64,000 nucleotides of DNA from a virus: the IMG/VR virus record IMGVR_UViG_3300047491_001507; one strand, written 5' to 3'. The notes beneath the pieces are model-generated. The model was not told where the DNA came from, ran no database searches, and saw only the letters and a program-made list of their open reading frames with translations. Positions 1,904 through 57,370 of this stretch are shown in pieces. How positions within the stretch are numbered: position 1 is the stretch's first letter; each line of letters opens with the position of its first letter. The position numbers and the translations under genes are program-made.

Positions 1904-2380
1904 TTATTTTGGACCCCTCTTAAGAGGTACTTTTTTAAGTTTTTCGATATGTCGATCTGGCTTATCTTTTAAAGAATGCATAATGTTCTTTACTTTGTTT
2001 ACAATTTCTGAAGCATTATCGGCTTCGCATTTTTGTACATGTTCAGGTTTTGAAGGTATCGATACGCTTTTGCGATCTTTGTTGTAAAAACCCTTACTGA
2101 TGTAATAACATTGATGCTCTGGGTGCCAGGATACGATACAGACCCATTCTCCATCATCCCAATTTCTAGAAGAAACCATGATGCGGTAGGGTTCTTGTTC
2201 GAATACTTGCTTTACATGAAAATTTTGTTTTTTCAAAGCTGCTGAAGCATATCCCAAGGTGATTTTCGCAGCATGTTTTAAGACTTCATTTGTTTTGGTT
2301 CTATAGTTAATCTCGACACTATATCGTGTGTCGGATTCTGTTAACAAGTCATTTTTTAACCAACCAATAAAACTTCGCAT
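1904..2380 (-). CDS. hypothetical protein with capsid-targeting-like N-terminus (MRSFIGWLKNDLLTE)
   Basis: N-terminal M-x-x-F-x-x-W-L ... L-T-E motif shared with about 14 other ORFs; CTAAATAAA 4 nt upstream of ATG. Confidence 0.4.
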   Translation of the reverse strand: MRSFIGWLKNDLLTESDTRYSVEINYRTKTNEVLKHAAKITLGYASAALKKQNFHVKQVFEQEPYRIMVSSRNWDDGEWVCIVSWHPEHQCYYISKGFYNKDRKSVSIPSKPEHVQKCEADNASEIVNKVKNIMHSLKDKPDRHIEKLKKVPLKRGPK

Positions 2381-2383
2381 ATT

Positions 2384-3208
2384 TTATTTAGTACTTACAG
2401 TGTAATTTTTGATCTTTAACCATTGCTCAAAATCATCTTTATTATATTTGTCTTTTTTCTTGTTGTTTTCACTTTGTGTAAGTGGTTGTAAATTATCCAA
2501 AGAATTGATTAGCTTCAAATCAGTGATTCCATAATCAATAAACGCCTGAATAGGAAATATGTGATCAAGATGCCAACTGCCATTTTTAATAGAGTTCCAA
2601 TTAGGATGGCTGACAACATGTTCTTGAAGTTCTTTTGGTCCGTAACCTAACATATCGCTTGTGTGTCCGATTTTACTTTTGCCAGTTGCTTTTAAAGTAG
2701 AAGATAACATCTTACAACATTTCTGTCTTAATTTTCTATTGAGTGCTAATTGTTCTCTATCTGGTTGCCAGCAATAGTGATCAGAGCCTCGTTTGAAATT
2801 CGTTTTTAATCTTGATTTTCTTAATTTTTCGAAACCACATTCTTTGCAATTTTGTTTTTGATGATAGAAAGCAGCAAAATCTATTTCTGCTTCTTGACCA
2901 CATTTACAACGATAGTGATACTTATGATGGATTCCTTTAAATTCTGTATCTAGAAATTCGCACCCTCTTTCACGGAATATTTCCCTTACTTCTTCTAAGG
3001 AGTATTTTTTCTTTCTACCAGTAAGACCACAATAACCACAACGTCTACCTCGTGAAAAATTATTCCATGTGATATGTGATATTGTGCCACATGAACACTT
3101 GTATTTCATATGTTTTTGACAGCCAACATATTCATCTAATAACTCGCATCCTTGCTGGAGAAAATATTCAGCCACTTCTTCTGTTGTTCTTTTTAATGTT
3201 TTTAACAC
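2384..3208 (-). CDS. HNH endonuclease with N-terminal zinc-ribbon repeats (candidate homing endonuclease)
   Basis: Repeated C-x-C ... C-x2-C pairs (KCSCG...CGYCG; CKCG...CKECG); C-terminal HNH signature SWHLDHIFPI...N...N. Confidence 0.55.
   Translation of the reverse strand: MLKTLKRTTEEVAEYFLQQGCELLDEYVGCQKHMKYKCSCGTISHITWNNFSRGRRCGYCGLTGRKKKYSLEEVREIFRERGCEFLDTEFKGIHHKYHYRCKCGQEAEIDFAAFYHQKQNCKECGFEKLRKSRLKTNFKRGSDHYCWQPDREQLALNRKLRQKCCKMLSSTLKATGKSKIGHTSDMLGYGPKELQEHVVSHPNWNSIKNGSWHLDHIFPIQAFIDYGITDLKLINSLDNLQPLTQSENNKKKDKYNKDDFEQWLKIKNYTVSTK
2385..2391 (-). promoter_or_regulatory. CTAAATA motif (minus strand) 4 nt upstream of the 2380 start; overlaps the stop codon of the upstream HNH gene
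   Basis: gtactaaataaaatATG on the minus strand; partly explained by the K-stop codons (aaa taa). Confidence 0.2.
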
Positions 3209-3246
3209 AATAACCTCTACAATTATATAATGTAGAAGTTTTATTT

Positions 3247-4164
3247 TTAGTCAAGAGTAATTGGTCCTTGGAAATCTGAGAACTTATTTATTAGCTCTTC
3301 TTGCCATTTCTCTTTAAGTTCCCATCCTTTGGTCTTCATATACTCACCATCTAACGCCATGCCCCCGCCAGGACCAGGAGGTGCTGAAAATTTACCACGA
3401 ATATGACCCAACATGATCATCGCATGGGCCAAAGCTCCTTCCTGCATAGCCTGTGTCACCTCACGGAAATCCTTGCACTTTTGAAGGTAGTGAACAATAA
3501 CCAACTGAGAACGACAAGGCGTTGGATACAATTTAATCCAACCTAAATCTGATACCCACTCCCAACCACCAATATTTGAACTGACTCTACTGAACATTTG
3601 TTCATACTGTTTGTATAATACCCATTCTCCCATTCTTCCCCACATAGGCTGAATAGGATCAATTAATCCACCTTGAATGGAGGCATAAGCTCCACCTGGG
3701 TAAAAATACTCAATAGGAATCGATCCATCAAGATCAGAAGCTTGAAAAGCAAAAGTTCCATGTTCTTTATAAAATACATTGCGTACCATGCCTACGTCGT
3801 CAGGCAATTTATAGACACTTTTGCCAGGAATGCTGCGAAACGTATAGTAGTCGTAATACTCTGGTCCAGCATAATCTTCAAAAATTTTCAAAGATTGATT
3901 GACTGCTAGATCTAAATTTTGTTCATCTAATTCAACTTTGACAACTGGGGCTCCCAGCATGAGCAAAACATAATCTTTAATATCTTCTCTGACTTTTTCA
4001 CGGTGTTTTCTGCTGCCTAACTTGCGGTCATGAGCAGATACGTATTTGCATGAATTTCCACTGGTTTCACAGCCGGTGGTGGTTTTGGTGGTGCTTCCGC
4101 AAAGATTGTTGTAACTTTGTTGAGAAGGTCTTCCAATTGCTAATGTATTGTTACAATTTGCCAT
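3247..4164 (-). CDS. hypothetical protein (possibly virion-associated)
   Basis: ORF track; divergent from the large 4201 gene; no motif recognised. Confidence 0.3.
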   Translation of the reverse strand: MANCNNTLAIGRPSQQSYNNLCGSTTKTTTGCETSGNSCKYVSAHDRKLGSRKHREKVREDIKDYVLLMLGAPVVKVELDEQNLDLAVNQSLKIFEDYAGPEYYDYYTFRSIPGKSVYKLPDDVGMVRNVFYKEHGTFAFQASDLDGSIPIEYFYPGGAYASIQGGLIDPIQPMWGRMGEWVLYKQYEQMFSRVSSNIGGWEWVSDLGWIKLYPTPCRSQLVIVHYLQKCKDFREVTQAMQEGALAHAMIMLGHIRGKFSAPPGPGGGMALDGEYMKTKGWELKEKWQEELINKFSDFQGPITLD

Positions 4165-4200
4165 AATATTTATATATAGATAAAAGCGGAAGTTTGAAAT

Positions 4201-7200
4201 ATGATAAATTACAAAAGTTATCTAGACAATAAAAAATTGTTAGAAATGGCAGCATTATGGGATGTTGATACATTAAACTTCCCAATGACAGATTCAATGG
4301 CTTGTTTCGTCTCTGTAATCCCTGGTTCTTACCAACATCAAGCAAAAGTATTGCAATGGTTAATGACAGATGGCATGGTAAGAGCTTCTCAGTATAGAGA
4401 TAGACTCTGTGCATTGTTAAACGATCAAGAAGACCCACATCCAAATTTGGGAAAATTGATGCCATTGCCAGAAAATATAGCCAATATGGTCAGAAATCGA
4501 ATATACGGATATGATGATGAAGTTAAAGCAGAGGCCAAAAGAATAGTTTCTGTTGGAGATGAATATGAATCAGCATATCCTGCTGATATTCACCCATGTG
4601 ATTTGTTTTCGAATATTGCCAGAGAAAAAGATCCCATTTTATCCGCAGCAGCAAGTTGGATTGATATTGCTTTTAAAGAACCTTTATGGATTTACATTCC
4701 CACTATGAATGGAGAGCATGAAGGGTATGAAATCAAAAAGATAAATAACATTCTAAGATCAAAAAATCTTCCGCCATTCAAATATGGTGGCGTAGATGGT
4801 TATCTTCAATATGTAGAAAAAGGCGATTGGCTACCAGACGATGAAAAACATGGAGAACATGACCGAAATAAGCAACATTATGCAGATTTGTCACAAGCAC
4901 AAATAACATATCGCACCGATCCTAGCGGCAAAGAGACAGGACAAGTACAAGCTGAGTTTTATGGTGGCACAATGTTAAAAAGTCTTAAAAAGTTTCAAAG
5001 ACTAGCTTCTGCTGCCAGAACTGCCTTTAATGATTATGTGGGCGACAATATCAGCAAAGAAATTGATCAAGAAACCAGAAGCCAAATAAGCAACATCATT
5101 CATAGTCTTCAAACACAACCTGAAACAGCACAAGAAATTAAGCCAGACAATATAACCAACATAATAGGCAAGCAAGGAGAGAAAAAGGAATTTGAGCTTA
5201 CTCCAGATCTTGTGCAAAACAAAGACATTATATTGGAAATATTCCGAAAAGGCATTCAAGAAATTCCCATAAGAATAGGCAAAGACTTTTATCACCATTT
5301 CTATGGCAGTACCGACTATTTCAGAAATGTAGAAGAAACTACTTTTAGAAAAAAGCCTTGCTATCTTTTGTATTTAACCGAACAACAACAACAAGATTTG
5401 TACAACTATGTTACTAAAGACATAGATGAAGGCGTTTTGTATGTTACTTGGAATTGGCTTGAAGATGATCTCAAAATAAGAAAAAGCATCGAATCTATAG
5501 AAAAAGTAGCCAATCCTACCAAAATAGGCAATTGGAGAGGATATTTTTACCATTTCTTTAATGGTGCATTGGCTAAATTTCCCGATTTACAAGCCAAATT
5601 TACACAAAATGTACGTCAAGTAAGCTTGCACAAAGTACTGGGAATTGACTCGTCTTCATATACTTATAAGTGTCAGTTATCAGATCTGACTAAAGAGCCC
5701 GTTACTCTGGATTATATTGAAGAAAAATTGATCAAGCTTGGATATCGATGGAATTCTGGCAATCCACCTGTCAAAGGCAAAGAAGGAGCTTTAGTATATG
5801 GATCAGGGGATGTTTATGATGCAATCAAAGTGGTGGCTTTAGATGATGGACGATTTATACTGAAGTACCCGAATTATAAGATTGTTCACGAAAACGATCC
5901 TGAACGAAAATTTTCCGATACTAGCATTGCTATGCTTTCCAGAAATCAAACAGGAAAACCACTGACTGTATCTAGCTTTCCTAGTGATCGCTTAGGAATA
6001 TTTCCGCTTAGAAGACAACATGAACGAAGACAGTTAATACAGGACTTGATGCAAGGAGATTGGGGAGAGCCAAACGGACCAGTAGATGATGAAAATGATC
6101 TTGCCTCATTAAAGCAACAAATACGAGTATACACTAAAAATAAAGAATTGATACCCGCAGAAAAGATTAAAAGCGATGGATTATTAGCTTTGTACTGGTT
6201 TACTGGCAATCCTGCTTTTAAATTTGGTAATTTAAACAAGGGTTCAAAGAGAAATATTTTTAATTGTTTAGAAAAAGAAGGTATTAGCCCAGAAGACCAA
6301 GAGCAATATGTAAGGGAATTGATTAAAAAAAGCCGTTTGAAAGATTACACTTGGGAAGATTTAAACAACGATTTTCCTCCAGAAGTAGTCAAAGCTGTTG
6401 GCGAAAATGCTTTTGATGCAAGAAAGGCTTATATTAGAAGTACTGTACTAAAACACAATACAGATAGATCTGAAGAACTTACATTTTCTTCTATGGCGGG
6501 CGGGGACGAAGAAAAATACAATCAACTCACACAGAATCTTGTTGCAACATATGATGCGGCAGGAGAAGAAGACGTTCAACGTCAGATTGCTCCAAAATCT
6601 AAAGATATATTGCAATCAAGAGCAAATAATCCTGAAGAAATCTTAAGCACACAAGAGAAGAAAAGATCAGATTGTCCCAATTGCGGAAACAGTCTTAGCA
6701 TGAGAACTTCTAAATGCAAGTGCGGATATTCGTTTAAAACAGGAAAAGTTCAAGAACTTCCTAAAAAACAATGTCCAAACTGTCAAACAGAGAACTCTCC
6801 TAAAGCTAGGAAGTGTGCCTGCGGATATTCGTTTAAAACAGAAAAGGTTGAAAAGCCAAATATTCCAACAATAAAACCTCCAAGTGCTAAAACGACAACT
6901 TTACCCAGTGCAATCAAAACGACAACTTTGCCTAGTAAATTTGTGATTCCTCCTCCAAAACCAGCGAGTTTTAGTGTGAATGTACCTATTACTGGAAAAA
7001 CTCCGATTGAAAAAGTAGATCTATTTGATGACGATGAAGATGAACGAGTGGATCTATTTGATGATGACGAAGAGAGGGTGGATTTGTTTGATGATGTTAA
7101 AGAACACAGGCTCATGAATTATAAAGCTTGGAAGAAAACCGTAGAAACATATGCTGTTTATGATGGAAAAAAGGTAAAAGACGGTTGTGGGTATAATTGG

Positions 7201-7278
7201 TGGGGAACAGTAGGCGATCCTATGGGAGTTTCCGTTGAAGGAGAAGTAAAAGTTAAGAAACACAAAAAAAGAAAGTGA
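4201..7278 (+). CDS. large hypothetical protein (1025 aa) with duplicated Cys4 zinc ribbons, TTTLPS repeats and acidic VDLFDDDE repeats
   Basis: CPNCGNSLSMRTSKCKCGYSFKTGK and CPNCQTENSPKARKCACGYSFKTEK duplicated ribbons; 3 tandem VDLFDD(D)E(D)ER units (DNA 7025-7098); KK-rich C-terminus. Confidence 0.5.
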   Translation: MINYKSYLDNKKLLEMAALWDVDTLNFPMTDSMACFVSVIPGSYQHQAKVLQWLMTDGMVRASQYRDRLCALLNDQEDPHPNLGKLMPLPENIANMVRNRIYGYDDEVKAEAKRIVSVGDEYESAYPADIHPCDLFSNIAREKDPILSAAASWIDIAFKEPLWIYIPTMNGEHEGYEIKKINNILRSKNLPPFKYGGVDGYLQYVEKGDWLPDDEKHGEHDRNKQHYADLSQAQITYRTDPSGKETGQVQAEFYGGTMLKSLKKFQRLASAARTAFNDYVGDNISKEIDQETRSQISNIIHSLQTQPETAQEIKPDNITNIIGKQGEKKEFELTPDLVQNKDIILEIFRKGIQEIPIRIGKDFYHHFYGSTDYFRNVEETTFRKKPCYLLYLTEQQQQDLYNYVTKDIDEGVLYVTWNWLEDDLKIRKSIESIEKVANPTKIGNWRGYFYHFFNGALAKFPDLQAKFTQNVRQVSLHKVLGIDSSSYTYKCQLSDLTKEPVTLDYIEEKLIKLGYRWNSGNPPVKGKEGALVYGSGDVYDAIKVVALDDGRFILKYPNYKIVHENDPERKFSDTSIAMLSRNQTGKPLTVSSFPSDRLGIFPLRRQHERRQLIQDLMQGDWGEPNGPVDDENDLASLKQQIRVYTKNKELIPAEKIKSDGLLALYWFTGNPAFKFGNLNKGSKRNIFNCLEKEGISPEDQEQYVRELIKKSRLKDYTWEDLNNDFPPEVVKAVGENAFDARKAYIRSTVLKHNTDRSEELTFSSMAGGDEEKYNQLTQNLVATYDAAGEEDVQRQIAPKSKDILQSRANNPEEILSTQEKKRSDCPNCGNSLSMRTSKCKCGYSFKTGKVQELPKKQCPNCQTENSPKARKCACGYSFKTEKVEKPNIPTIKPPSAKTTTLPSAIKTTTLPSKFVIPPPKPASFSVNVPITGKTPIEKVDLFDDDEDERVDLFDDDEERVDLFDDVKEHRLMNYKAWKKTVETYAVYDGKKVKDGCGYNWWGTVGDPMGVSVEGEVKVKKHKKRK
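7025..7098 (+). repeat. three tandem about 30-33-bp coding repeats (VDLFDDDE-ER) inside the 4201..7278 gene
   Basis: gtagatctatttgatgacgatgaagatgaacga / gtggatctatttgatgatgacgaagagagg / gtggatttgtttgatgatg read directly. Confidence 0.7.
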
Positions 7279-7282
7279 CAAT

Positions 7283-7549
7283 ATGAGCGATTTTTTCAAA
7301 TATGCTTCAAATCCCAAAGCTTATACTCTAAAGAAGTGGTTTAGTGAATTATTGAAAGAAGATTATCTTCCTTTTAATGATGTTGTAGAGCGTTTAGCTA
7401 CAGTTTTAGCTACAGAAAAAGATTTGCAAGATTGTGGACGGTTAATAACCACGATTTATGAAAGAGCTTATAGGAAAGCAGTGGATGATTACCGTGAGGA
7501 ATTCGAAAAACTAGGTGTAACCATTAACATTGTGCCTAGATCTAACTAA
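7283..7549 (+). CDS. hypothetical protein
   Basis: ORF track. Confidence 0.3.
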   Translation: MSDFFKYASNPKAYTLKKWFSELLKEDYLPFNDVVERLATVLATEKDLQDCGRLITTIYERAYRKAVDDYREEFEKLGVTINIVPRSN

Positions 7550-8201
7550 AATCTGGACAACTATCGGATGAAATGGCTGTTAGAAGATATCCCCCCGTTT
7601 TGGGTAGTTTTTGATTAATTCTCCACCATCTTTCGGCTCCTTCTTTTACTTTCAAGTGGATAATGGAGTTTATTGTAATATCTCTTAACGACCATATTTG
7701 CAGTTGTAAATCGGACTGATCTACAACGATTGCTTCAAAAATAAACTTGTCTCCATATTGAGTTGTGTTGTATGTTGATCCATATAAAGAATCAACATGT
7801 GTTAAAGTACCTATTGCTGGGGCACAGAAGAATTTAACTCCGTCTTTTTTAAATAATGCTTCTAATTGCACAGGTTGTTTGACGGGCTGTTGCTCTACAA
7901 TAGGCTCTGTAGGTTGTTCGACAGGTTGTTCTACGATTTCAGGTTGTTTGATTTCTTCGATAAAATCTTTAGTTGGAATGTAGGTATCATTGGTTTTAAG
8001 GTTTAATTTTTCAGAAATATTAAGGACATTGAAATCAGATTTGAATTTCTCAACTGGATTGTTTTTATCTTTAATTACCTCTGATCCAAATCGCATATTA
8101 ATCAATCTTACTTGAGAAATATCCCAATTATCTTGGTGTTGTATTATCGGATTGGGACCTACTAATTTATAGACGCTTCCATCCTTATTTTTAATTGCCA
8201 T
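7542..8201 (-). CDS. hypothetical protein with Pro/Gln-rich linker (PVEQPTEPIVEQQPVKQPVQ)
   Basis: ORF track; low-complexity linker between two domains. Confidence 0.35.
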   Translation of the reverse strand: MAIKNKDGSVYKLVGPNPIIQHQDNWDISQVRLINMRFGSEVIKDKNNPVEKFKSDFNVLNISEKLNLKTNDTYIPTKDFIEEIKQPEIVEQPVEQPTEPIVEQQPVKQPVQLEALFKKDGVKFFCAPAIGTLTHVDSLYGSTYNTTQYGDKFIFEAIVVDQSDLQLQIWSLRDITINSIIHLKVKEGAERWWRINQKLPKTGGYLLTAISSDSCPDFS

Positions 8202-9072
8202 ATTTATATCCGACTTTTGTCGCAGCTTTGCCTGTAATATTTATTCCAGACTCTTTGTACATTTGGTTATTTACGATTTTGCTAATAGTTGACACACCTA
8301 CATTAAAAGTATTGGCTAGGTTTTTAAGAGAAAAGCCTTCTGACCTTAATTTTCTGATATTGTTGGCTTTTTCTCTGTTTAGTATCGGTCCTGACCAATA
8401 TTTTCCTTGTTTGTCTTTGGGTGCTAAGCTTATATCTATCTTGTAATCAAAGCAATCGCCAAATTCTTTGACGTATTTTGATACGATTTTCATAAAATGA
8501 AAATAGGATTTTGCCGATATTCTAATTATCATTCCTTTTTTGGTTCTGCAAGTTTTAGCTGTGATGTTGAATTCATTTTTAAGACAATCAACCAAAAATT
8601 GGGTTTCGTTTTCACTAAAAGCTTGAGTATGTAAAATAACGCTTTTGCATCTCTTTTTACTGCAAACGTTATTTTGTCCATCTTGTACAAACCAATGGGC
8701 CAAAATACGAGGCGTCAATTTTAAATCAGACGGAACGCATTTAGTTTTATTTTTGTACCATTTTTCCCAAATTTTGGTGAAGTCTGGATTGCATTTGGTC
8801 CAAAAATAATAATGTTTGCAATATTCGCCATTCCATTCTTCAAGAGAATGGATTATTTTTCCATCTCTTCTGGAGGGTTTTTTCGATATGCCCATTCTTA
8901 CTTCACAAGACACATATGAATCAAATTGTTTGTAAAGATAATGTACATATTTTTCGAATTTTTCACATTGTTTTATTTTAAACATTGCGTTTTTTGAACG
9001 AATGCTATTTAGACATAAACAACCATCTCCCAAAAGACTGCCCATCATGATTTCATAAAGTTTGTTTGTCAT
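8191..9072 (-). CDS. LAGLIDADG-family homing endonuclease with C-terminal HTH
   Basis: Two LAGLIDADG-type motifs (MGSLLGDGCLCL and LAHWFVQDGQ) at the expected roughly 100-aa spacing; C-terminal HTH-like NIRKLRSEGFSLKNLANTFNVGVSTISKIV; 11-nt overlap with the downstream gene. Confidence 0.55.
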   Translation of the reverse strand: MTNKLYEIMMGSLLGDGCLCLNSIRSKNAMFKIKQCEKFEKYVHYLYKQFDSYVSCEVRMGISKKPSRRDGKIIHSLEEWNGEYCKHYYFWTKCNPDFTKIWEKWYKNKTKCVPSDLKLTPRILAHWFVQDGQNNVCSKKRCKSVILHTQAFSENETQFLVDCLKNEFNITAKTCRTKKGMIIRISAKSYFHFMKIVSKYVKEFGDCFDYKIDISLAPKDKQGKYWSGPILNREKANNIRKLRSEGFSLKNLANTFNVGVSTISKIVNNQMYKESGINITGKAATKVGYKYGN

Positions 9073-10073: not shown

Positions 10074-10086
10074 ACTAAATAGTTAT

Positions 10087-10689
10087 ATGGCAATATACAA
10101 TCCAGACGGCAGCGAATATAAACCATCAGGTAGTTTAGCTCAATTTGATCCTAAAAACCCAGAATTTAATGTTTTTAATGTTTGGGACCAAGAAGCTATC
10201 GAAATGGGAGGCACTCCCTTATATTATTATGAGGTTTTCATCAACGTCAATAACATTGATGAGTTATATGTAGAAGCAAGAGACAAGATATATTCGCAAT
10301 TCCCTGTAATAATCCATGGTTATTATGAGCCAATTCCCTGCACAAATACTTTGGGAACATTTGGCATTGATTCTCCAGACGAAATGATGTTTGAGTTTAA
10401 TTATCGACATGTACTGAAGACTTTGGGACATGCTCCTAAGATTGGAGCTAGAATTTTTTCTCCTCATAAAAGCGAAAATTGGATTGTAATCCAAAGAAAC
10501 ACTGAAGTTTATAAGCTTTGGGGAGAATTAAGACTTCAGGTCATGTGTCAACGATTCCAGGAAAGCCTTACGACTGGAGAGGGCAAAGTTACTTTGAATA
10601 ATCAGCCTGATTATAAAATCAATAGTATTAAAGACCTGAAAGCAAATAATGGAATGAATATGGCCGGTGGGCAAACTTCTATTCCCTAA
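10087..10689 (+). CDS. hypothetical protein (neck/tail module candidate by position)
   Basis: Track ORF starts 10009 but overlaps the convergent gene; internal ATG at 10087 (MAIYNPDGSE) is the likelier start. Confidence 0.3.
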   Translation: MAIYNPDGSEYKPSGSLAQFDPKNPEFNVFNVWDQEAIEMGGTPLYYYEVFINVNNIDELYVEARDKIYSQFPVIIHGYYEPIPCTNTLGTFGIDSPDEMMFEFNYRHVLKTLGHAPKIGARIFSPHKSENWIVIQRNTEVYKLWGELRLQVMCQRFQESLTTGEGKVTLNNQPDYKINSIKDLKANNGMNMAGGQTSIP

Positions 10690-10834: not shown

Positions 10835-11851
10835 ATGTCAGAGCCTACTTTAGTTCCATGCAATGAACCAGGAGATATCAAACAATTAAATGCAGATCCT
10901 GCGGTTCCATTTTGCAAACAGGCAGTTGTTCAAGAAACATCTGGGACTATAGATCATCAGCCGGTTGTCACCAATATAAATGATGTTACAGGAAGTGATT
11001 TATCTTGGTTAGAAGAAGCAACACAAAGAAAAATGGGACAAGGAGAACCTGTTACTTGTGATCCTCAGCAGACGGGTCACATTATTAACGAACAAGGAAT
11101 GAGTCCTCCTAATAGAGACACAGTATACAGATATGAAAAATCTTTACGAGGAACTGACGAAGCTGTCAGAAAGATGTTTCAAGACATAGTGGTAATAGAT
11201 GAATCTGGAAAAGCACACAATATACCTATTATTTGGGCCACACAAGAGAAAGCAGTGGCTTATATTATTCAAGAAAATGTGCGTAAGGATGAAAGCTTAG
11301 TAGTGGATCGAGTTCGTTTGCCCATGATGGCAATACATCCTTCAAATTACCAGTTTAATCAATCTAGATACACTTACCATAAAGCGATAAATTATTTAAG
11401 AAGACGAGATTTAGATTGGAGTCCAGGATTCACGGTCAAAGAACGTTATGAAAGAGATACGGTTTTTGGAGTTTCTCGGGGAATTCCTATTGATATTAGT
11501 TACACTTTGATTGCTTGGACTTTATATGAAGAAGATATGAATCAGATTCTTACTCAAATTGCTACAAAATTTAGCCCTATGGCGTATATAAGAGTAAGAG
11601 GAGTTTCGTGGGAGGTCGGTGTTAAACTTGACTCGATAGGAAACAATGTAAATGTTGAGCCAGGAGACAAACAAGTACGAGTTTTTAAATATCAATTTGG
11701 GATTACTGCTGAAACTTATATTTCGCAGCCAATTGTTAGAAGAAAAGCAGTGCTGAAAACTAAAGTTGAAGTTACCGATAGTACTAATGAAGAAGACATA
11801 AGTGAGGTCTTGATTAGGTTAGAAGAGGCAGTAAAGGAATTAGAACCATGA
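10835..11851 (+). CDS. candidate tail-sheath stabiliser / tail-completion protein (T4 gp15-like)
   Basis: Lies immediately upstream of the sheath gene; segments HNIPIIWATQEKAVAY and YTLIAWTLYEEDMNQILTQIATKF resemble, as I recall them, gp15-family motifs; needs HHpred. Confidence 0.4.
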   Translation: MSEPTLVPCNEPGDIKQLNADPAVPFCKQAVVQETSGTIDHQPVVTNINDVTGSDLSWLEEATQRKMGQGEPVTCDPQQTGHIINEQGMSPPNRDTVYRYEKSLRGTDEAVRKMFQDIVVIDESGKAHNIPIIWATQEKAVAYIIQENVRKDESLVVDRVRLPMMAIHPSNYQFNQSRYTYHKAINYLRRRDLDWSPGFTVKERYERDTVFGVSRGIPIDISYTLIAWTLYEEDMNQILTQIATKFSPMAYIRVRGVSWEVGVKLDSIGNNVNVEPGDKQVRVFKYQFGITAETYISQPIVRRKAVLKTKVEVTDSTNEEDISEVLIRLEEAVKELEP

Positions 11852-12075
11852 TAGAAATTAAAAATAAAACAAGAAGTCCGATACAACTACTTGTTAGATC
11901 AGGGACGGCCCCTCGTTCATTTACAACTTTAATCGTTCCTGGAATAGGAAAAGGTAATAATGTCACATTAATAGAAGATGAACGCAAGACCGATATTATT
12001 GAACGTGTGGAGAAATTGGGCCTCATCTCCACTAAATATATTCCAAACTCAGAGATTCGTTTAAGGGAGATATAA
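11848..12075 (+). CDS. small hypothetical protein
   Basis: ORF track; ATGA overlap with upstream gene; contains the CACTAAATA motif near its 3' end. Confidence 0.3.
   Translation: MIEIKNKTRSPIQLLVRSGTAPRSFTTLIVPGIGKGNNVTLIEDERKTDIIERVEKLGLISTKYIPNSEIRLREI
12032..12038 (+). promoter_or_regulatory. CTAAATA motif 39 nt upstream of the sheath ATG (candidate late-promoter -10 element)
   Basis: cactaaatata followed by strong SD aagggag and ATG 12078. Confidence 0.3.
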
Positions 12076-15082: not shown

Positions 15083-15110
15083 TCCAATTTTTATAATTTT
15101 AGGAGAAAAA

Positions 15111-47088: not shown

Positions 47089-47478
47089 TTATTGTGTCAA
47101 AAAAGGAGGTTGCGGCCCTGGAGGAATATTTCCAGTATTAGTGTTTAATGGAGGCATTTCAGGAGATGCGCCTTTTTTGTTATGCTTTTTGTTTTCTTTG
47201 TCTTTGTTATATTTTCTATCTAAAAAATCAAAAAAATCAATATCTTCATCATCTTTAGGTAAAGTTGGATTACCACCGACAGGAGGGCCTGGAGGAGCCC
47301 CTAAGCCACCACCTAAATCTGGAGGTCCACCTAAGCCAGGAGGAGGGCCTGGAGGAGCAGCACCGGCACCGCCACCTAAATCTGGTCCACCGAGCCCTGG
47401 AGGTCCACCAGGAGGAGCGGCTCCTCCCATTCCCATTTCAGGACCTTGTTCATTAATGATAAAGTGCTTAAATCGCAT
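47089..47478 (-). CDS. Pro/Gly-rich low-complexity protein with targeting-like N-terminus (MRFKHFIINE)
   Basis: Repeated PPGLGGP(P)DLGGG units; local GC-rich island in an AT-rich genome; CTAAATA 4 nt upstream. Confidence 0.4.
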   Translation of the reverse strand: MRFKHFIINEQGPEMGMGGAAPPGGPPGLGGPDLGGGAGAAPPGPPPGLGGPPDLGGGLGAPPGPPVGGNPTLPKDDEDIDFFDFLDRKYNKDKENKKHNKKGASPEMPPLNTNTGNIPPGPQPPFLTQ

Positions 47479-47482: not shown

Positions 47483-47489
47483 TATTTAG
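47483..47489 (-). promoter_or_regulatory. CTAAATA motif (minus strand) 4 nt upstream of the 47478 start
   Basis: gaactaaataagaATGcga on the minus strand. Confidence 0.3.
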
Positions 47490-47595
47490 TTCATTGGCTG
47501 CAAATCTTTTGACTAAAAAATTAGAACTTATTGCTCTTGCTTTAAAATGTTTAATAGGATAAGATTCAGAGATCTTATTCACCAAGGAGACATAC

Positions 47596-48069
47596 ATGGC
47601 TAAAGCTACGTTTTGGAAAGCAAAGGAAGTTGAAGAAGTTGCAGTAAATTTGATCGAAAAATACCATCAGCATTTATTGGATTTCAATGTCAGAATAGAA
47701 TATATGTTTACTGACAAAACCCCGAAGAACAATGGAAAAGAAGTTTGGGGTTGTTGTCGTAAAGTCTCATCTCTTAACGCATATCTTGCTAAAGACAATG
47801 TAGATGGAGATCCATTCTTTGTTATTGTAATCAGTAAAGATATCTGGGATATACTTCCTGCTGAAAAACGAGAAGCTTTAATAGACCATGAATTGTGCCA
47901 TGCTTTAGCCGAAGCTAATCAAAAAGAAGACGAAGATGATGCCGAACCGGTGAAATTGTCAATTCGTCCTCATGATTTGGAAGAATTTGCCTGCATTGTA
48001 CGCAGACATGGCACTTGGAAAAATGATATCGAAGACTTTATTAAAGCAAGTCGAGAAAAAATTTCATAA
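47596..48069 (+). CDS. hypothetical protein with HExxH (HELCH) motif; possible zinc metallopeptidase-like
   Basis: REALIDHELCHALAEA; SD aaggaga upstream. Confidence 0.3.
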   Translation: MAKATFWKAKEVEEVAVNLIEKYHQHLLDFNVRIEYMFTDKTPKNNGKEVWGCCRKVSSLNAYLAKDNVDGDPFFVIVISKDIWDILPAEKREALIDHELCHALAEANQKEDEDDAEPVKLSIRPHDLEEFACIVRRHGTWKNDIEDFIKASREKIS

Positions 48070-48816
48070 TGTCAGGATCTCACAACCATGATCTGTCACT
48101 AAAACAGTGTGTTCATATTGTGCGGATAATCCGCCATCGACTGTGACTGCGGTCCATTTATCCTCAAGTATTTTAGCAGTTGCTGAATTGGTGCAGATCA
48201 TGGGTTCTATTGTGAAAATCATCCCAGGTTTCATTTTTCGATTATCAAAATTTCTTCCATCAAAAAAATGACTTACTTGTGGCTCCTCATGAAATTCTAG
48301 ACCTGTACCGTGCCCGCAAAATTGATAAACGACCGAGAAATTATTTTCCCTAGCATGTTTAGAAATAGCTTTGCTTATATTGCCAAATTCAGCATCAGGC
48401 TTTACTTCAGCAATTCCTATTTCTAAACATTTTTTCGTTACTTTTATCAGTTTTTTAGTTCTTTTAGGAATGTTTCCAATCTGAAACATTGTACAGGTAT
48501 CCCCATAATAACCATCCAAAATGGTTGTTACATCGATATTTAAGATATCTCCATATTTGAGAACTGTAGAATCAGGTATTCCGTGACAGATTACTTCATT
48601 TAAAGAAGTGCAAATGGATTTAGGAAAGCCATTATAATCAAGAGGTGCCGGAATGGCACCGTGATCTCTAATATACTGATCTAAAAGATCATTGAGATAT
48701 AAAGTGGTCACTCCTTCTTTGACATAGTTTTCAATAAATCGAAGTGACTCAGCGGCTAGTTGACAGCTTTTACGAATGCCTTCTATTTGCTCAGTTGTTT
48801 TGATTATAATGCTCAT
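48064..48816 (-). CDS. map: methionine aminopeptidase, type I
   Basis: VICHGIP, FCGHGTGLEFHEEPQV, GMIFTIEPMI metal-ligand motifs. Confidence 0.8.
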   Translation of the reverse strand: MSIIIKTTEQIEGIRKSCQLAAESLRFIENYVKEGVTTLYLNDLLDQYIRDHGAIPAPLDYNGFPKSICTSLNEVICHGIPDSTVLKYGDILNIDVTTILDGYYGDTCTMFQIGNIPKRTKKLIKVTKKCLEIGIAEVKPDAEFGNISKAISKHARENNFSVVYQFCGHGTGLEFHEEPQVSHFFDGRNFDNRKMKPGMIFTIEPMICTNSATAKILEDKWTAVTVDGGLSAQYEHTVLVTDHGCEILTL

Positions 48817-52328: not shown

Positions 52329-52796
52329 ATGAGAAATCTAATCAGTAGAGACATTGCTCCCAATCGTGACAATCTTTTGTTCCCACTTGAAACCGCTTTT
52401 GATGAATTCTTTCGTGAATTCTTTTCTTCAAATCCTATTTCTCGTGTTAAACAGGGCGGTTATCCAAAAATGAACGCTTCTGAATCAGAAAATGAATTAG
52501 TGTTAACATTGGCAGTTCCTGGGATGAAATCGGAAGATTTAGAATTGGTAATTGATCAAAACAACATATTGACTGTTCGTGGAAAAATGTCGGTAGATTA
52601 CCAATCGCCTGAAGGTAGTAAATATTACATCAGAGAATTGAGACAATCCGCTTTTGAGCGAAGTATACAGCTACCAGAATACGTGAGAGGCGATCCAAAA
52701 ACCTCTATGAAAGATGGTATTTTGACATTGACTTGGGAAACTGAACCTAAAGTTCCTAAAAACAATGTCAGAAAAATCAACATCGAACCTAGTTGA
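52329..52796 (+). CDS. small heat-shock protein (Hsp20/alpha-crystallin family)
   Basis: ACD-like LVLTLAVPGMKSEDLELVIDQNNILTVRGK ... GILTLTWETEP. Confidence 0.7.
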   Translation: MRNLISRDIAPNRDNLLFPLETAFDEFFREFFSSNPISRVKQGGYPKMNASESENELVLTLAVPGMKSEDLELVIDQNNILTVRGKMSVDYQSPEGSKYYIRELRQSAFERSIQLPEYVRGDPKTSMKDGILTLTWETEPKVPKNNVRKINIEPS

Positions 52797-52859: not shown

Positions 52860-52912
52860 AGCCAAAATTTTTTATTAACGCATAACTAATTTATTTGATA
52901 TTTGAGGAATCA

Positions 52913-54040
52913 ATGGAAGAAGATTGTAAAGAGCCTCCTGGTAGAGTGGCCGCTACTCTATATGAGCAATTGCCGAGTAGCGGTCGTAAGATTTTTGACT
53001 CAGCAACGAATGAAAATTGGAATGATTGGAAATGGCAATTTGCTAATCGATTAACTTCAGCCGATCTTGGAAATGTAGAATTTAAATTCCCTGTAGCAAT
53101 TACCCCTTATTATTTCTCTCTAATTAAAGATTATTCTCTCAACGATCCGATCTTTTCAATGTGCATGCCAAATCCCAGAGAATTATCGGAAATTATGCAT
53201 GCAGATCCATTAGGAGAAGATCAAATGATGCCAGTAAAAAATCTGGTTCATCGTTATAAAGATCGAGCTTTAATTATTACAACGACATTATGTTCTATGT
53301 ATTGTCGTTATTGCACCAGAAAACGTACCGTAGGATCAAAAGATCACATTCTTACTCAAGAAAATTTAGAAGAAATTACAAATTATCTTAAATCTCATCC
53401 AGAAATCACCGATGTCATCATTTCTGGAGGCGATCCAATGGTGTTTTCCACTAAAAAACTAGAACACATCATCAAAAAAATCAGATCTGTTTCTTCGGTT
53501 CAGGTCATTAGAATTGGCACTAAAGTGCCTGTTGTAATGCCAATGCGAATTAACAAACATTTGGCAAGTATGTTGTCAAAATACCATCCGATTTATGTCA
53601 ATACCCATTTTAATCATCCTAATGAAATTACTCCAGAATCCATGCAAGCTTGTAATATTCTAGCAAATCATGGAATTCCTGTGTCAAACCAGTCGGTTTT
53701 GCTTAAAGGGGTAAATGATGACAAGTATGTATTTGAAGAACTTTGCCGAAAACTCTTTAGAAACAGAGTCAGGCCATATTATTTATTCCAATGTGATCTT
53801 GTTAATGGAGTAGAGCATTTTCGCACTAGGGTTGCTCAAGGTATAGAAATTATGGAACACCTACGAGGTCGTTTGTCTGGAATGGCTATTCCTCAATTTA
53901 TTGTTGATAGTCCCAATGGACTAGGAAAAATTCCAGTATCGCCCAATTATGTGTTGTATCAAACTCCAGAAAAGTTTGTGCTAAGAAATTATCAAGGTAA
54001 ATTGGTGGAATATCCAGAAGTTAAGCAGTTAAGTCCATAA
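52913..54040 (+). CDS. KamA-family radical SAM enzyme (lysine 2,3-aminomutase / EpmB-like)
   Basis: CSMYCRYCTRKR (C-x3-C-x2-C), ISGGDP, and overall KamA-family layout; track ORF starts at TTG 52895, first ATG with SD gaggaa is 52913. Confidence 0.75.
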   Translation: MEEDCKEPPGRVAATLYEQLPSSGRKIFDSATNENWNDWKWQFANRLTSADLGNVEFKFPVAITPYYFSLIKDYSLNDPIFSMCMPNPRELSEIMHADPLGEDQMMPVKNLVHRYKDRALIITTTLCSMYCRYCTRKRTVGSKDHILTQENLEEITNYLKSHPEITDVIISGGDPMVFSTKKLEHIIKKIRSVSSVQVIRIGTKVPVVMPMRINKHLASMLSKYHPIYVNTHFNHPNEITPESMQACNILANHGIPVSNQSVLLKGVNDDKYVFEELCRKLFRNRVRPYYLFQCDLVNGVEHFRTRVAQGIEIMEHLRGRLSGMAIPQFIVDSPNGLGKIPVSPNYVLYQTPEKFVLRNYQGKLVEYPEVKQLSP

Positions 54041-54757: not shown

Positions 54758-55023
54758 CCCCAAATAAAGAATGTTACTTTGATTTCGGACAACTTGAGAT
54801 TGTTAATGCAAAGAAAGTGAAAGTTTTTGTCAAAAATGGACCTCGTGAATTAGAAGTGGGAGATATCATTGGCGGTAGACGGATTATCGCCATTAATATC
54901 AAAGGAATTAATTCAGACAACTTAGGAATTGGCATGAATGGCAAGATTACTCTCGATGGCATGCCAATGCTTACTATTGGCGTGCCATATGACAATATCA
55001 TTTCAAAACAATTTTTGTTTTGA
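54754..55023 (+). CDS. small hypothetical protein
   Basis: ORF track; ATGA overlap. Confidence 0.25.
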   Translation: MTPNKECYFDFGQLEIVNAKKVKVFVKNGPRELEVGDIIGGRRIIAINIKGINSDNLGIGMNGKITLDGMPMLTIGVPYDNIISKQFLF

Positions 55024-55534
55024 TGCGATATTGATTGCTGAAGACGATTTCATCTACTGTCACAGTAGTTCCTGAAAATTCTGTATTGCCTGCATACTTT
55101 TTGCCTGTTCCTTTTTTGACATAGGCAATTGTGCAGTGGGGCTCGTACTTTGGATGCGTCGAGCTAAAACTGCAATTTTTTCTTAATTTTTCATTTAGAC
55201 GATGTAAATCTTTACTTTCCACAGTGAATTTTACTACATCGTATTCTTCATTTTCAAAGACCGATGTTTCTTTGATTTCAAATGTAATAGGCTTTTCGCC
55301 TTTAACGACCTTTTTAACACGGTCTGGCGTTTTGTCGTGTAAACCATACAAAATAGTTACATGACAATCATCTTCTCTGCCATAATCTTCTATATCATAC
55401 ACATCAGAATCTGGAATTAATTTCTTTCCAAATTTCATTACTTTCTCAGCAAGGGCATGCGGCAAATTTACATGGGTTGACGAATATTCATGTTCTGTCT
55501 TCTCTAATAAAAACTGTTTCCAATTTCTCATCAT
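54998..55534 (-). CDS. 2H phosphoesterase (LigT-like) with targeting-like N-terminus (MMRNWKQFLLE)
   Basis: Two H-Φ-[ST]-Φ motifs, CHVTILYG and PHCTIAYV, about 75 aa apart in a 178-aa protein; CTAAATAAA 35 nt upstream and SD aaagg. Confidence 0.5.
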   Translation of the reverse strand: MMRNWKQFLLEKTEHEYSSTHVNLPHALAEKVMKFGKKLIPDSDVYDIEDYGREDDCHVTILYGLHDKTPDRVKKVVKGEKPITFEIKETSVFENEEYDVVKFTVESKDLHRLNEKLRKNCSFSSTHPKYEPHCTIAYVKKGTGKKYAGNTEFSGTTVTVDEIVFSNQYRIKTKIVLK

Positions 55535-55596: not shown

Positions 55597-56175
55597 ATGG
55601 ACTCTTTAACAAAAATTATAAAAGAAACAGAAGCCTTAGATATTAATATTGAGCCTTTTACAGCAGATTTTCCTTCTACTATTCGGGATTCTGTTCTTCA
55701 AACCAATTTTTATTGGGGGTTAGCAGCTTATATTTCTCTGTTTAAAGTGAAAAAAGTCTTAGAATTAGGCACTTGCACAGGAGCAAGTGCTGCTATTATG
55801 GCAAGGGCCGGTGCAGAAGTTGATACCTATGATTTATTGGATAAATGGGAACTTCCCAAAATAGACAATTTGTATCGCCATATTGTTCCTCAAGATTATT
55901 TGGAATTTTTGAAATTTGAAGGTTATGACATGATCTTTGTAGATGTAGGACACGATGGTAAAGCAGAACAAGAAATTCACGAAAAACTAACAAAAGAATA
56001 TAAAGGCATTGTGTTCTATGACGATATCATCATAAACCAAGATATGATCTATTTCTGGAATGGAATTAAACAAGACAAATTGCCTTTATTTTGGCATGTG
56101 GCAAAATATCCCTCAGCCAATCCTGGAGGAGGACTTATCACCAAGAATGTTGGGTTTGGTATTGTCAGATATTAG
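55597..56175 (+). CDS. class I SAM-dependent methyltransferase (O-methyltransferase-like)
   Basis: Motif I VLELGTCTGASA, acidic DTYDL, MIFVDVGHD; start moved to internal ATG (MDSLTKII) because the track ORF (55477) overlaps the convergent gene. Confidence 0.45.
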   Translation: MDSLTKIIKETEALDINIEPFTADFPSTIRDSVLQTNFYWGLAAYISLFKVKKVLELGTCTGASAAIMARAGAEVDTYDLLDKWELPKIDNLYRHIVPQDYLEFLKFEGYDMIFVDVGHDGKAEQEIHEKLTKEYKGIVFYDDIIINQDMIYFWNGIKQDKLPLFWHVAKYPSANPGGGLITKNVGFGIVRY

Positions 56176-56418
56176 TTTCTTTTGACCCCTGCGTTTATTT
56201 ACATTTTCTTTATGATCGTGAGGAGCCATGATTCCATTTTTACCTGGAGGTCCTTTATCTCCATAATGAATCCAAAGATATGTAACAACATCAGCAGAAC
56301 CAGGAGTTGTGTATAGAGGAGGATATTGCCCTACGACATCATAAATTGGCGGATATAAGCCGATTTTTGATCCTGTGCGTTGATCTTTTTCTAAAAGCAA
56401 CCATTCTTTGAATTTCAT
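56113..56418 (-). CDS. small protein with targeting-like N-terminus (MKFKEWLLLE) and a short collagen-like GDKGPPGKNG segment
   Basis: N-terminal motif; CTAAATA 5 nt upstream. Confidence 0.35.
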   Translation of the reverse strand: MKFKEWLLLEKDQRTGSKIGLYPPIYDVVGQYPPLYTTPGSADVVTYLWIHYGDKGPPGKNGIMAPHDHKENVNKRRGQKKLISDNTKPNILGDKSSSRIG

Positions 56419-56423
56419 ATAAA

Positions 56424-56430
56424 TATTTAG
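56424..56430 (-). promoter_or_regulatory. CTAAATA motif (minus strand) upstream of the 56418 start; the same bases on the plus strand give TATAAATA (56418-56425) about 70 nt upstream of the 56493 gene
   Basis: catataaatatttag read directly: bidirectional T4-late-promoter-like element. Confidence 0.3.
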
Positions 56431-56492
56431 TTGTTTAAACTAAATTATATTGAGTAAATAGTTTAAGATTTACTTTTAAATAAGGATGGTAT

Positions 56493-57056
56493 ATGTCAGA
56501 ATTAGAAGGATCACCTTGGTTTTGGAGGATTTTTGGCGGTGCAATCCTCAGTCTTCTCACTATTCTTTTTGTCACGCTCTTTAATATAATCCATACCTCA
56601 AACGAAAGAGCTAACTCTGATATTCTTGCCACAATTCAAGAAATTAAAGTTGACTTACGTGCTATCAATTCAGAAATTAAAGAACAAGAACAAAAATTAT
56701 TAAAAATAGACAGCAATGCACTAAAAGAGTCTATTACCAGTTTAGAAAAAAAGTTTAATGATATCGATACCGACACAAAGAATCGCAACGAACGTCTGGC
56801 TTCTTTAGAAACAGCACTTACAAATATCAAAGAACAAATCGCTGCGGATAAAACCGACAAAAACAATACGGATTATAAAAATCTTTATGAGCGGGTTGTA
56901 GCACTGGAATTAGAGTTGAAACAATTAAAAGAAAAATCCGGTCAAGTTCAATCCACTGCTGAAGCCAAAAAAACTATGTTGTTAGAAAAAAATACAGATA
57001 AAAATAAGCCTTTATCCAATGTTCCTATCCTTAAAAATTTACCGCTCAAACAATAG
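56493..57056 (+). CDS. membrane-anchored coiled-coil protein (N-terminal TM helix plus long coiled coil; i-spanin-like architecture)
   Basis: FWRIFGGAILSLLTILFVTLFNII TM segment, then heptad-rich EIKVDLRAINSEIKEQEQKLLKIDSNALKESITSLEKKFNDID... Confidence 0.4.
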   Translation: MSELEGSPWFWRIFGGAILSLLTILFVTLFNIIHTSNERANSDILATIQEIKVDLRAINSEIKEQEQKLLKIDSNALKESITSLEKKFNDIDTDTKNRNERLASLETALTNIKEQIAADKTDKNNTDYKNLYERVVALELELKQLKEKSGQVQSTAEAKKTMLLEKNTDKNKPLSNVPILKNLPLKQ

Positions 57057-57064
57057 ATACATGC

Positions 57065-57370
57065 ATGAATTTTAAGAGTTGGTTAGAGCAAAAAGAAGAA
57101 CCTATCTATTGCTTATGGCGAGAATATAAAGATTATGGAGAAATACACATTCTCCTAAGCAATATCCGACATATATTTGCTGCAAATCTAGATAATTTTT
57201 ATAACAAAAGAGACTTTGCTTCATGGAGAAAACAAAGCAAGATTCCCAATGCAAAATGGGTAGTTTGGCACAGAATTCAAGATGCTGTAGATCAAGGCTG
57301 GGTAGAACAAATAGAACCCAAAAAGCCTCCAAAAAAAGAAAGCCCTTTTAAACAAAAAAGACTTTTCTAA
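57065..57370 (+). CDS. small protein with targeting-like N-terminus (MNFKSWLEQKEE)
   Basis: N-terminal motif. Confidence 0.35.
   Translation: MNFKSWLEQKEEPIYCLWREYKDYGEIHILLSNIRHIFAANLDNFYNKRDFASWRKQSKIPNAKWVVWHRIQDAVDQGWVEQIEPKKPPKKESPFKQKRLF

Follow-up and report, generated by a model that had tools for sequence, protein, structure and literature searches.

What is the function of a short N-terminal sequence that recurs on proteins which are, for the most part, otherwise unrelated? The question is raised by a stretch of viral DNA of 64,000 nucleotides (IMG/VR record IMGVR_UViG_3300047491_001507), referred to here as the window, in which many genes begin with a motif of two aromatic residues, an aliphatic residue and a Glu; we call the proteins that bear it carriers. 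Our analysis suggests that the shared N-terminus is probably a capsid-targeting sequence (CTS) of the type known from phage T4 and at the same time a substrate for the prohead protease, used here at the scale of a proteome. For comparison we relied on the uncultured 595-kb phage LR756511, which was fetched whole (974 called genes); the window is syntenic with 439–487 kb of this genome, the proteins being 27–61% identical.

A short N-terminal motif is strongly enriched at gene starts

An earlier note on this DNA quoted 14 N-termini with a common motif and proposed that about 15 unrelated proteins share it. All 14 were found where they had been placed, each at the first ATG of its own open reading frame (ORF), and in all carriers the motif lies within residues 1–12 of the ORF that begins at this ATG. 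Expressed as the strict pattern M-x(0-3)-[FW]-x-x-[FW]-[LIVF]-x(0-3)-E, the motif was present at the N-terminus of 13 of the 70 called genes of the window, compared to 0.03 expected (binomial P = 2e-30), and it occurred twice in the 17,284 internal positions of the window proteins. A loose pattern matched 15 of the 70 N-termini (P = 8e-25). When the pattern M.{0,3}[FW]..[FW][LIVF] was applied to the 420 ATGs that are followed by at least 50 codons in any of the six frames, 19 were recovered, nearly all of them real gene starts. Two degenerate carriers (37962–38666 and 4201–7278) were added to the set.

The carriers are not all independent of each other. Five of them (22593–31202) are paralogs with 31–38% identity; after removal of the first 15 residues, no pair of carriers beyond these five had detectable BLASTP similarity, and the motif is thus found on 10 independent families. 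The earlier statement therefore holds for the shared motif but not for the number of unrelated proteins. The functional labels that the same note had attached to carriers (2H phosphoesterase, HAD, Pro/Gly-rich and small basic proteins) were upheld by domain matches and by composition.

A similar enrichment was observed in LR756511, where the strict motif is found on 28 proteins compared to 2 expected (P = 8e-23) and where 53 of the 974 proteins score at least 4 with a position-specific scoring matrix (PSSM), many of them reading MKTFxxWLE. Matches were also found on further contigs of the clade. Enrichment, which the earlier note had named as a check on its proposal, is thus strong in both the window and the LR756511 genome. 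In a set of 53 carriers, the first aromatic residue lies at residue 2–5 and is Phe in 48, Tyr in 3 and Trp in 2; the second follows three residues later and is Trp in 28 and Phe in 25.

The conserved positions are those of the T4 capsid-targeting sequence

The CTS of T4 is MKTYQEFIAE (PMC8442874). We confirmed this sequence in the T4 record for the internal proteins (IPs) IPII and IPIII, and found that IPI begins MKTFKEFTST. Amber-suppressor mutagenesis of IPIII identified residues 4 and 7 as those required for targeting and residues 8 and 10 as those required for processing, with Asp at position 10 allowing targeting but blocking cleavage (PMC9026906). The window motif is conserved at four positions (aromatic, aromatic, aliphatic and Glu), and these are the equivalents of positions 4, 7, 8 and 10 of the T4 mutagenesis. 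In one of the five paralogs (27780–29477), F4, F7, L8 and E10 occupy exactly the T4 positions.

The correspondence also holds when T4 itself is searched. Among the 213 ORFs of T4 45–135 kb, the pattern derived from the window, with Tyr allowed, matched only IPII and IPIII. A PSSM trained solely on LR756511 ranked IPIII, IPII and IPI second to fourth among the same ORFs; the ORF ranked first is antisense to all the genes annotated there, so that the three IPs are the top-scoring real genes. The closeness to the T4 CTS that had been claimed for the window motif is thus borne out by the matrix and by the agreement at four positions.

T4 gene 57B, which encodes Acb1 and adjoins ipI (AF158101, 28952–29410 of the fetched T4 segment, minus strand), begins MMEFKDFS, similar to the MKTFKEF of IPI. 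Its PSSM score is only 0.3, and to our knowledge T4 Acb1 is not a known virion protein.

Selection acts on amino acids rather than codons

Codon choice at the Phe and Leu positions of the motif is the same as genome-wide usage, both in the window phage and in LR756511. The second aromatic residue is encoded by TGG (28) or by TTY (25), a ratio of about 50:50, and the distance from the initial Met to the motif varies in whole codons, by 1–4. Selection is on the amino acids, not on the codons.

Carriers are also associated with a sequence element upstream of the gene. In LR756511, 25 of 37 carriers lack a Shine-Dalgarno sequence and have TAnATA 3–7 nt before the ATG, an arrangement shared by only 55 of the 937 remaining genes (odds ratio 33, P = 1e-20) and seen in 80 of the 974 genes in all. 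The 55 include about 12 degenerate carriers and a few recognizable virion proteins (gp13 and a tail-tube paralog), and several more that likewise start MA. For the window, the corresponding numbers are 7 of 16 carriers and 5 of 56 other genes (P = 0.003), and the element ACTAAATA is common to five window carriers, lying 4–7 nt before the ATG (Table 1). The position of TAnATA directly before the ATG, combined with the lack of a Shine-Dalgarno sequence, would imply leaderless or near-leaderless late mRNAs. The simplest reading is that TAnATA would be a T4-like late promoter from which transcripts start at or beside the AUG. The likely candidate for a reader of such promoters is a sigma factor of 180 residues encoded within the window (18217–18759). 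This protein is of the size and type of T4 gp55, matches Pfam Sigma70_r2 (1.5e-7) and the PHROG family 'late sigma transcription factor' (1.8e-5), and its gene lies in a syntenic block with tail genes.

Two genes that flank the neck region, 7542–8201 (minus strand) and 10087–10689 (plus strand), have N-termini similar to each other (MAIKNKDGSVYK and MAIYNPDGSEYK, respectively). Both have a TA-rich promoter-like element right at the ATG.

A potential concern is that the signal resides in the mRNA, as a means of leaderless initiation or as a site near the AUG for binding of a translational regulator, with the peptide being a by-product. Such an explanation could draw upon the upstream element, since 68% of the carriers in LR756511 and 7 of 16 in the window have TAnATA 3–7 nt ahead of the ATG and lack a Shine-Dalgarno sequence, and upon the A/T-richness of the region. 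We give it hardly any credence, and an explanation at the nucleotide level was rejected, on several grounds. Synonymous codon use is that of the genome, TGG and TTY interchange freely, and the offset from the start codon varies by 1–4 whole codons. Furthermore, gp13 and a tail-tube gene have the same promoter arrangement but no peptide. Conversely, ordinary Shine-Dalgarno leaders precede about half of the carriers in the window, and the IP genes of T4 have the equivalent peptide behind normal leaders, indicating that the peptide does not depend on the leaderless arrangement.

A glutamate signature and a T4-type head module in relatives

We examined the acidic residue of the motif in carriers that were defined with no requirement for Glu, counting paralogs once (n = 49). 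Glu is found within four residues past the hydrophobic core in 37 of the 49, compared to 25% expected (P = 1e-13). Asp is found in the same four residues in 8 of the 49 and shows no enrichment. After the core, Glu outnumbers Asp by 45:9, compared to a background ratio near 1.1:1 (P = 4e-6). In the five paralogs, small residues are found after the Glu (AGLEH, GGLEH, SNLKD). The exceptions among the window carriers are 1904–2380, in which the Glu comes only at residue 15, and 37962–38666, which has no nearby Glu.

Relatives of the window phage encode a T4-type head. In LR756511, phmmer detected homologues of T4 gp17, gp20, gp21 and gp23, the gp21 homologue (525953–526621) matching Pfam Peptidase_S77 at 2.5e-27. 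The order of Portal_T4, Peptidase_S77 and Gp23 is the same in a 673-kb relative. Neither the unassigned 310-residue gene at the gp22 position of LR756511 nor the unassigned 299-residue gene that lies between the protease and capsid genes of the 673-kb relative showed homology to a scaffold. The capsid protein and the protease of LR756511 contain L-x-E ending at residue 10 (FLNE and LLNE, respectively). The capsid protein of the 673-kb relative likewise has FLNE ending at residue 10 and its protease has L-I-E ending at residue 11, while the T4 protease has LIE ending at residue 9 (PMC9026906). Two LR756511 carriers, a NADAR enzyme and a protein of 1076 residues, are encoded a few genes downstream of the capsid gene. 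In the 673-kb relative, a gene beginning MKTFSQFVGLKE is found between the portal and protease genes.

Two additional observations were made on these head modules. The T4-type portal gene of the 673-kb relative (contig L053, 2061–4628) contains an intein, based on matches to Pfam Intein_splicing and Portal_T4. In LR756511, an orthologue of the window 2H enzyme (534205–534765, minus strand) lacks the peptide and yet lies inside the head module, between terminase and portal.

These results bear on whether the peptide might be an address for late assembly that works differently from the T4 scheme. It could direct proteins to a prohead in which no cleavage takes place, or to the tail lumen, the baseplate or an intracellular compartment, with the Glu forming part of a binding surface. 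The association with late-type promoters is compatible with such an address, as is the location of several carriers next to tail and neck genes. In addition, the Glu has no constant position and P3 is in many cases aromatic, a departure from the L/I-x-E rule of T4, and targeting in T4 is itself separable from processing, Asp10 supporting targeting with no cleavage. We nevertheless consider this explanation unlikely. The enrichment of Glu and not Asp (45:9) fits a Glu-specific protease better than it does a generic acidic contact, and the T4 IPs are the best-scoring real T4 genes when the matrix of the clade is used. The N-termini of the capsid protein and protease within the clade keep L-x-E ending at residue 10 or 11, and carriers are located near the capsid gene of LR756511 and, in the 673-kb relative, between portal and protease.

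The peptide is gained and lost among orthologues

Three pairs of orthologues between the window and LR756511 have kept the motif, with the proteins being 42–55% identical. In contrast, two LR756511 orthologues are without the peptide: that of the 2H enzyme, and that of 31204–31464, the orthologue beginning MPEPDKKAYKGWRGT. The peptide is an add-on, gained and lost among orthologues. The orthologue of 1904–2380 in LR756511 begins MLNFKDYVEE. Orthologues of 39368–39841 have kept the motif as MEFKKFLITE in LR756511 and as MMFKEFLLNE on clade contig L017, and two LR756511 homologues of 56113–56418 begin MDFKGWFYTE and MNKLDFKLWIE. The positional orthologues of the degenerate carrier 4201–7278 have a clear motif, beginning MLLKFKEFLDNSW in LR756511 and MTFRKFIRTKLKE on clade contig L011. 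In a predicted structure for the five-paralog family, the N-terminal 18 residues are disordered.

The 2H enzyme (54998–55534) allowed for a broader comparison. It matches Pfam 2_5_RNA_ligase2 and Acb1 (32.5 bits for Acb1, with a cut-off of 27), contains two HxT motifs (HVT at 58–60 and HCT at 133–135), and its sequence matches in the PDB are solely to Acb1 (9q2g, 9q2y). Based on these matches it is an Acb1-type 2H phosphodiesterase, with predicted activity on cyclic nucleotides. We made an exhaustive search for homologues in 1.8 billion representative proteins and analyzed the best 150 matches. No recognizable copy of the domain was found in the first 40 residues for 124 of the 150 (median length 1797 residues). 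Most of the top matches lie hundreds to thousands of residues deep in proteins of 500–5600 residues, and the alignment to these giant homologues starts at about residue 9–17 of the query, just past the motif. The 2H domain is N-terminal in the other 26, of which 10 have a PSSM score of at least 4, about 4 more have the peptide as judged by eye, and about 12 begin at the domain itself; one of the 26 begins MKTYREFVED. Two of the giant homologues contain, between them, SLT, SNF2 and 'large polyvalent protein' (LPD38) domains. For polyvalent proteins, injection along with the DNA has been predicted, as has a role of the 2H domains within them in countering defence signalling based on nucleotides (PMC5512222). 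Because the 2H domain is found with or without the peptide, and otherwise inside giant proteins, the peptide can be considered a discrete module placed before an effector domain.

Other enzymes are tagged in a similar manner. Tagged HAD-type phosphatases, in which the motif immediately precedes the DxDxT strand, are present in three genomes; besides the window protein, they are a NIF-domain protein of the 673-kb relative, beginning MQFGLWLEQNE, and an HAD_SAK_1 protein of LR756511. Domains found on LR756511 carriers include NADAR, HAD, 2H/CPD and C39/AvrRpt2-like protease. Most carriers have no known domain.

The peptide could in principle play some other role on late proteins, such as that of a stability or degradation tag, a chaperone handle or an oligomerization helix, or it could mark the boundary of a recombination cassette and have no part in targeting. 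Gain and loss among orthologues would fit cassette exchange as well, two of the paralogs have a near-identical promoter and 5′ end, and the IP loci of T-even phages are variable and share only the conserved CTS. Outside the paralogs, however, the upstream DNA of carriers is dissimilar, and the proteins are unrelated beyond residue 15. The motif is also kept between orthologues whose identity has fallen to 42–55%, and it matches, position for position, T4 residues that are proven to act in targeting and processing. The bias of Glu over Asp is left with no explanation by a role of this kind, which we regard as very improbable.

Genomic context of the carriers

The coordinates of carriers, upstream elements and other features are given in Table 1. 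The phage belongs to the T4 superfamily, based on homologues of gp13, gp15, gp18, three gp19, the hub protein and the gp46/47-position genes in the window, and of gp17, gp20, gp21 and gp23 in relatives. Relatives of the sheath protein are found on IMG/VR contigs of up to 572 kb. A search with the LR756511 capsid protein matched more than 7,800 close homologues from clade members (120 listed), about 80% identical and on contigs of up to 673 kb. The synteny with LR756511, the sheath relatives and the abundance of capsid homologues place the phage among the huge phages of an abundant clade whose head is of the T4 type. The family of five paralogs was located on a 306-kb JGI contig, which is not among the 120 capsid-protein matches listed, and was found only on contigs of this phage itself. 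Near-identical DNA was not found in the phage collection, nor was an exact match found among IMG/VR or JGI metagenome contigs, and searches with individual genes added short Logan contigs that reach about 7 kb past the left end of the window and none past its right end.

Table 1. Coordinates of carriers, upstream elements and other genes of the window.
Feature	Position	Strand	Remarks
Window	64 kb		35% G+C; fragment of T4-superfamily myovirus
Carrier, 158 aa, pI 9.5	1904–2380	−	No known domain; starts MRSFIGWLKNDLLTE
Degenerate carrier, 1025 aa	4201–7278	+	Adjoins gp13-like neck gene; starts MINYKSYLDNKKLLE; PSSM 2.5
Carrier, 139 aa, HAD-like phosphatase	22086–22505	−	MKFQMWLENQK directly before DxDxT strand VVTFDFDSTLT
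Carrier, paralog 1 of 5, 566 aa	22593–24293	+	MGFKDFVIFE then AGLEHR
Carrier, paralog 2 of 5, 583 aa	24325–26076	+	MLFKEFLNISE then AGLEH
Carrier, paralog 3 of 5, 570 aa	26066–27778	+	MGFRDFFYIE then GGLEH
Carrier, paralog 4 of 5, 565 aa	27780–29477	+	MVSFKEFLLE then SNLKD
Carrier, paralog 5 of 5, 567 aa	29499–31202	+	MVSFKEFFFIE then AGLEH
Carrier, 86 aa, basic	31204–31464	+	MFLEWLEH; Lys-rich tail
Possible extra carrier, 234 aa, basic	37962–38666	+	Starts MISNFTEWVNVK; no Glu nearby; PSSM 8.1
Carrier, 233 aa, weakly NUDIX-like	38677–39378	+	MRNFIEWLTE (F4, W7, L8, E10)
Carrier, 157 aa, basic	39368–39841	−	MQNFKNFLINE; PQ-rich tail
Carrier, 129 aa, Pro/Gly-rich	47089–47478	−	MRFKHFIINE
Carrier, 178 aa, Acb1-like 2H phosphodiesterase	54998–55534	−	MMRNWKQFLLE; domain from about residue 12–17
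Carrier, 101 aa, basic	56113–56418	−	MKFKEWLLLE
Carrier, 101 aa, basic	57065–57370	+	Starts MNFKSWLEQKEE; top PSSM score of window, 25.0
ACTAAATA element	2385–2392	−	4 nt before ATG of 1904–2380
ACTAAATA element	10074–10081	+	Before gene 10087–10689
ACTAAATA element	12031–12038	+	Before sheath gene
ACTAAATA element	22578–22585	+	7 nt before ATG of 22593–24293
ACTAAATA element	24310–24317	+	7 nt before ATG of 24325–26076
ACTAAATA element	47483–47490	−	4 nt before ATG of 47089–47478
ACTAAATA element	56424–56431	−	5 nt before ATG of 56113–56418
gp13-like neck protein	3247–4164
gp15	10835–11851
gp18 sheath	12078–14450
gp19 tail-tube paralogs, three	14516–16315
Small sigma factor	18217–18759	−	Region 2 only
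Baseplate hub protein	33493–34662
Glutamine amidotransferase	36702–37895	−
gp46/47-position gene pair	43957–47035		Named from the earlier note and synteny with LR756511; no family hit
Methionine aminopeptidase	48064–48816	−	Peptidase_M24; phage's own
HSP20	52329–52796	+
Radical-SAM lysine-aminomutase-like enzyme	52895–54040	+
Ribonucleotide reductase and PyrG			In window; labels of the earlier note alone

The neck and tail module is interrupted by three genes of homing-endonuclease type, all on the minus strand (2384–3208, 8191–9072 and 16646–18076); one is HNH/EndoVII-like, one LAGLIDADG, and one HNH with five DUF4379 zinc fingers. The seemingly ORF-free end of the window is in fact occupied by a single giant gene (59295 to >64000, plus strand) of more than 1,568 codons, which runs off the window and in which matches to a PHROG 'virion structural protein' family recur. 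Its N-terminus resembles that of LR756511 gene 255109–256200. No tRNA or Rfam elements were found in the 64-kb window.

Proposed mechanism and points against it

The reading of the shared N-terminus as a CTS and prohead-protease site, as put forward in the earlier note, is supported by several lines of evidence: the recovery of the T4 IPs by the PSSM, the Glu bias, the S77 protease of relatives, the add-on behaviour of the peptide, and the link to a promoter.

Several results weigh against such a reading. Neither an S77 prohead protease nor scaffold genes are found within the window, the protease being known from relatives. The distance of the Glu from the core is not fixed but varies from 0–3 residues past the aliphatic position, with the Glu of 1904–2380 coming no earlier than residue 15, and the P3 residue is often Trp or Phe instead of Leu or Ile. 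Two other jumbo phages of the T4 superfamily, XacN1 and Microcystis phage Mel-JY01, lack the motif in their 50-kb head regions, so that the tie to T4 may be one of convergence and not of common descent; for the same reason, the published virion data for XacN1 are no test of the CTS idea. We found no cultured member of the clade and no virion proteome, the closest capsid proteins in a search for cultured relatives being 32–34% identical. Isoelectric points (pI) are higher for window carriers than for other window genes (median 9.0 compared to 6.1, P = 0.013), but the bias toward basic charge is not significant in LR756511, and for this reason we do not use basic charge as an argument. A Toprim/zinc-ribbon primase of LR756511 (543819–544832, plus strand), which starts MVDFDSFVDWCEDRF and has a motif-matrix score of 14, is unlikely to be a head protein; this could be either a chance match or a case of a replication enzyme carrying the tag. 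Lastly, given the tight link to a promoter that abuts the ATG, the 5′ end of the mRNA may have some influence.

We propose the following mechanism for a T4-type CTS in this phage. The carriers would be expressed late, many of them as leaderless or near-leaderless mRNAs from a gp55-type TAnATA promoter located 3–7 nt before the ATG. The first 8–12 residues, with the consensus M-x(1-3)-F-[KR]-[EQD]-[WF]-[LIVF]-x(0-3)-E, would form a short amphipathic peptide, the two aromatic residues of which would bind the scaffolding core of the prohead, and the attached protein would become enclosed as the shell forms. A gp21-like S77 serine protease would then cut after the Glu that lies past the aliphatic residue, freeing the mature protein within the head, and the mature proteins would exit together with the DNA when a host is infected. 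The steps of binding, packaging, cleavage and ejection are ones that we infer from sequence. The cargo would consist of small basic proteins, the lineage-specific family of five paralogs of about 570 residues, and enzymes of anti-defence type (Acb1-like 2H, HAD and NUDIX-like). The carriers, including the anti-immunity enzyme, are probably injected into the host along with the DNA.

A broader proposal, on which our own opinion is evenly divided, is that of a cargo code that operates across this globally abundant clade. In such a code about 3–5% of the genes (about 30–50 proteins per genome) would be tagged, would be expressed mostly from leaderless gp55-type late transcripts, and would have their products loaded into the head and injected, with the cargo including stand-alone polyvalent effector domains (Acb1-like 2H, NADAR, HAD and C39-like protease) and fast-evolving lineage-specific families. 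T4 provides the precedent for the mechanism. New here would be its extension to dozens of proteins in huge phages of a distant clade, the coupling to late promoters that abut the ATG, and the attachment to stand-alone effector domains of polyvalent proteins.

If this reading is correct, then the proteins injected by huge uncultivated phages, which would be their opening move against host defences, could be listed by use of a 10-residue motif, with the genome sequence alone as the starting point. The list would already hold plausible anti-defence enzymes (an Acb1-like nuclease, NADAR, HAD, 2H phosphoesterases and a C39-like protease) as well as dozens of proteins of unassigned function that would be candidate counter-defence factors. 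It would also link two strategies for delivery of the same effector domains, one that uses an address peptide for each protein and one that uses a giant polyvalent fusion. The peptide may serve as a portable tag, given that T4 heads already take up foreign proteins fitted with a peptide that is equivalent at the positions tested.

Comparison with known systems

In our search of the literature, the CTS was known on a handful of T4 proteins, and no link to huge phages was found. The motif described here resembles the T4 CTS in its location at the extreme N-terminus, in its length of 10–19 residues, and in its presence on otherwise unrelated proteins that are often small and basic and also on enzymes. 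The two differ in scale: three T4 proteins have the canonical sequence, compared to 10 families in 64 kb of the window and about 30–50 proteins (3–5% of genes) in the 595-kb relative. There are also differences in sequence, since the second aromatic residue is Phe in T4 but is often replaced by Trp in the clade, where the Glu lies 0–3 residues past the aliphatic position. The IP genes of T4 have normal leaders, whereas most LR756511 carriers have a promoter-like element abutting the ATG. The capsid proteins are only about 30% identical.

A comparable use of proteolysis is found in the phiKZ-like giant phages SPN3US and 201phi2-1, in which many head-internal proteins are cut after Glu by a diverged gp21 homologue and the propeptides are thought to be targeting signals (PMC5694885). 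However, those propeptides are mostly longer than 100 residues and have no common short motif, in contrast to the 10-residue consensus found here at the extreme N-terminus. In phage P1, the anti-defence proteins Dar/DarB are loaded into the head by means of an N-terminal signal shorter than 30 residues, and this signal suffices for a reporter (PMC9024508); the N-termini of the Dar proteins differ from the carriers in having no shared consensus.

The 2H enzyme of the window invites two further comparisons. Like the anti-CBASS protein Acb1 (T4 gp57B), it contains both HxT motifs, and it passes the Pfam threshold for Acb1; unlike Acb1, it carries an address peptide, which the start of T4 57B merely resembles. 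For the most part its 2H subfamily resides within polyvalent proteins of giant size, where LPD38, SNF2 and SLT domains are its neighbours, and these proteins are predicted to be delivered with the invading DNA (PMC5512222). In polyvalent proteins many domains are fused into one giant polypeptide, whereas in the phage described here separate small proteins each have an address peptide of their own. The window enzyme consists of one domain in 178 residues together with the peptide, and it is only its homologues that lie inside giants. It thus shares with the polyvalent proteins a domain, and probably the logic of delivery, rather than membership in their class.

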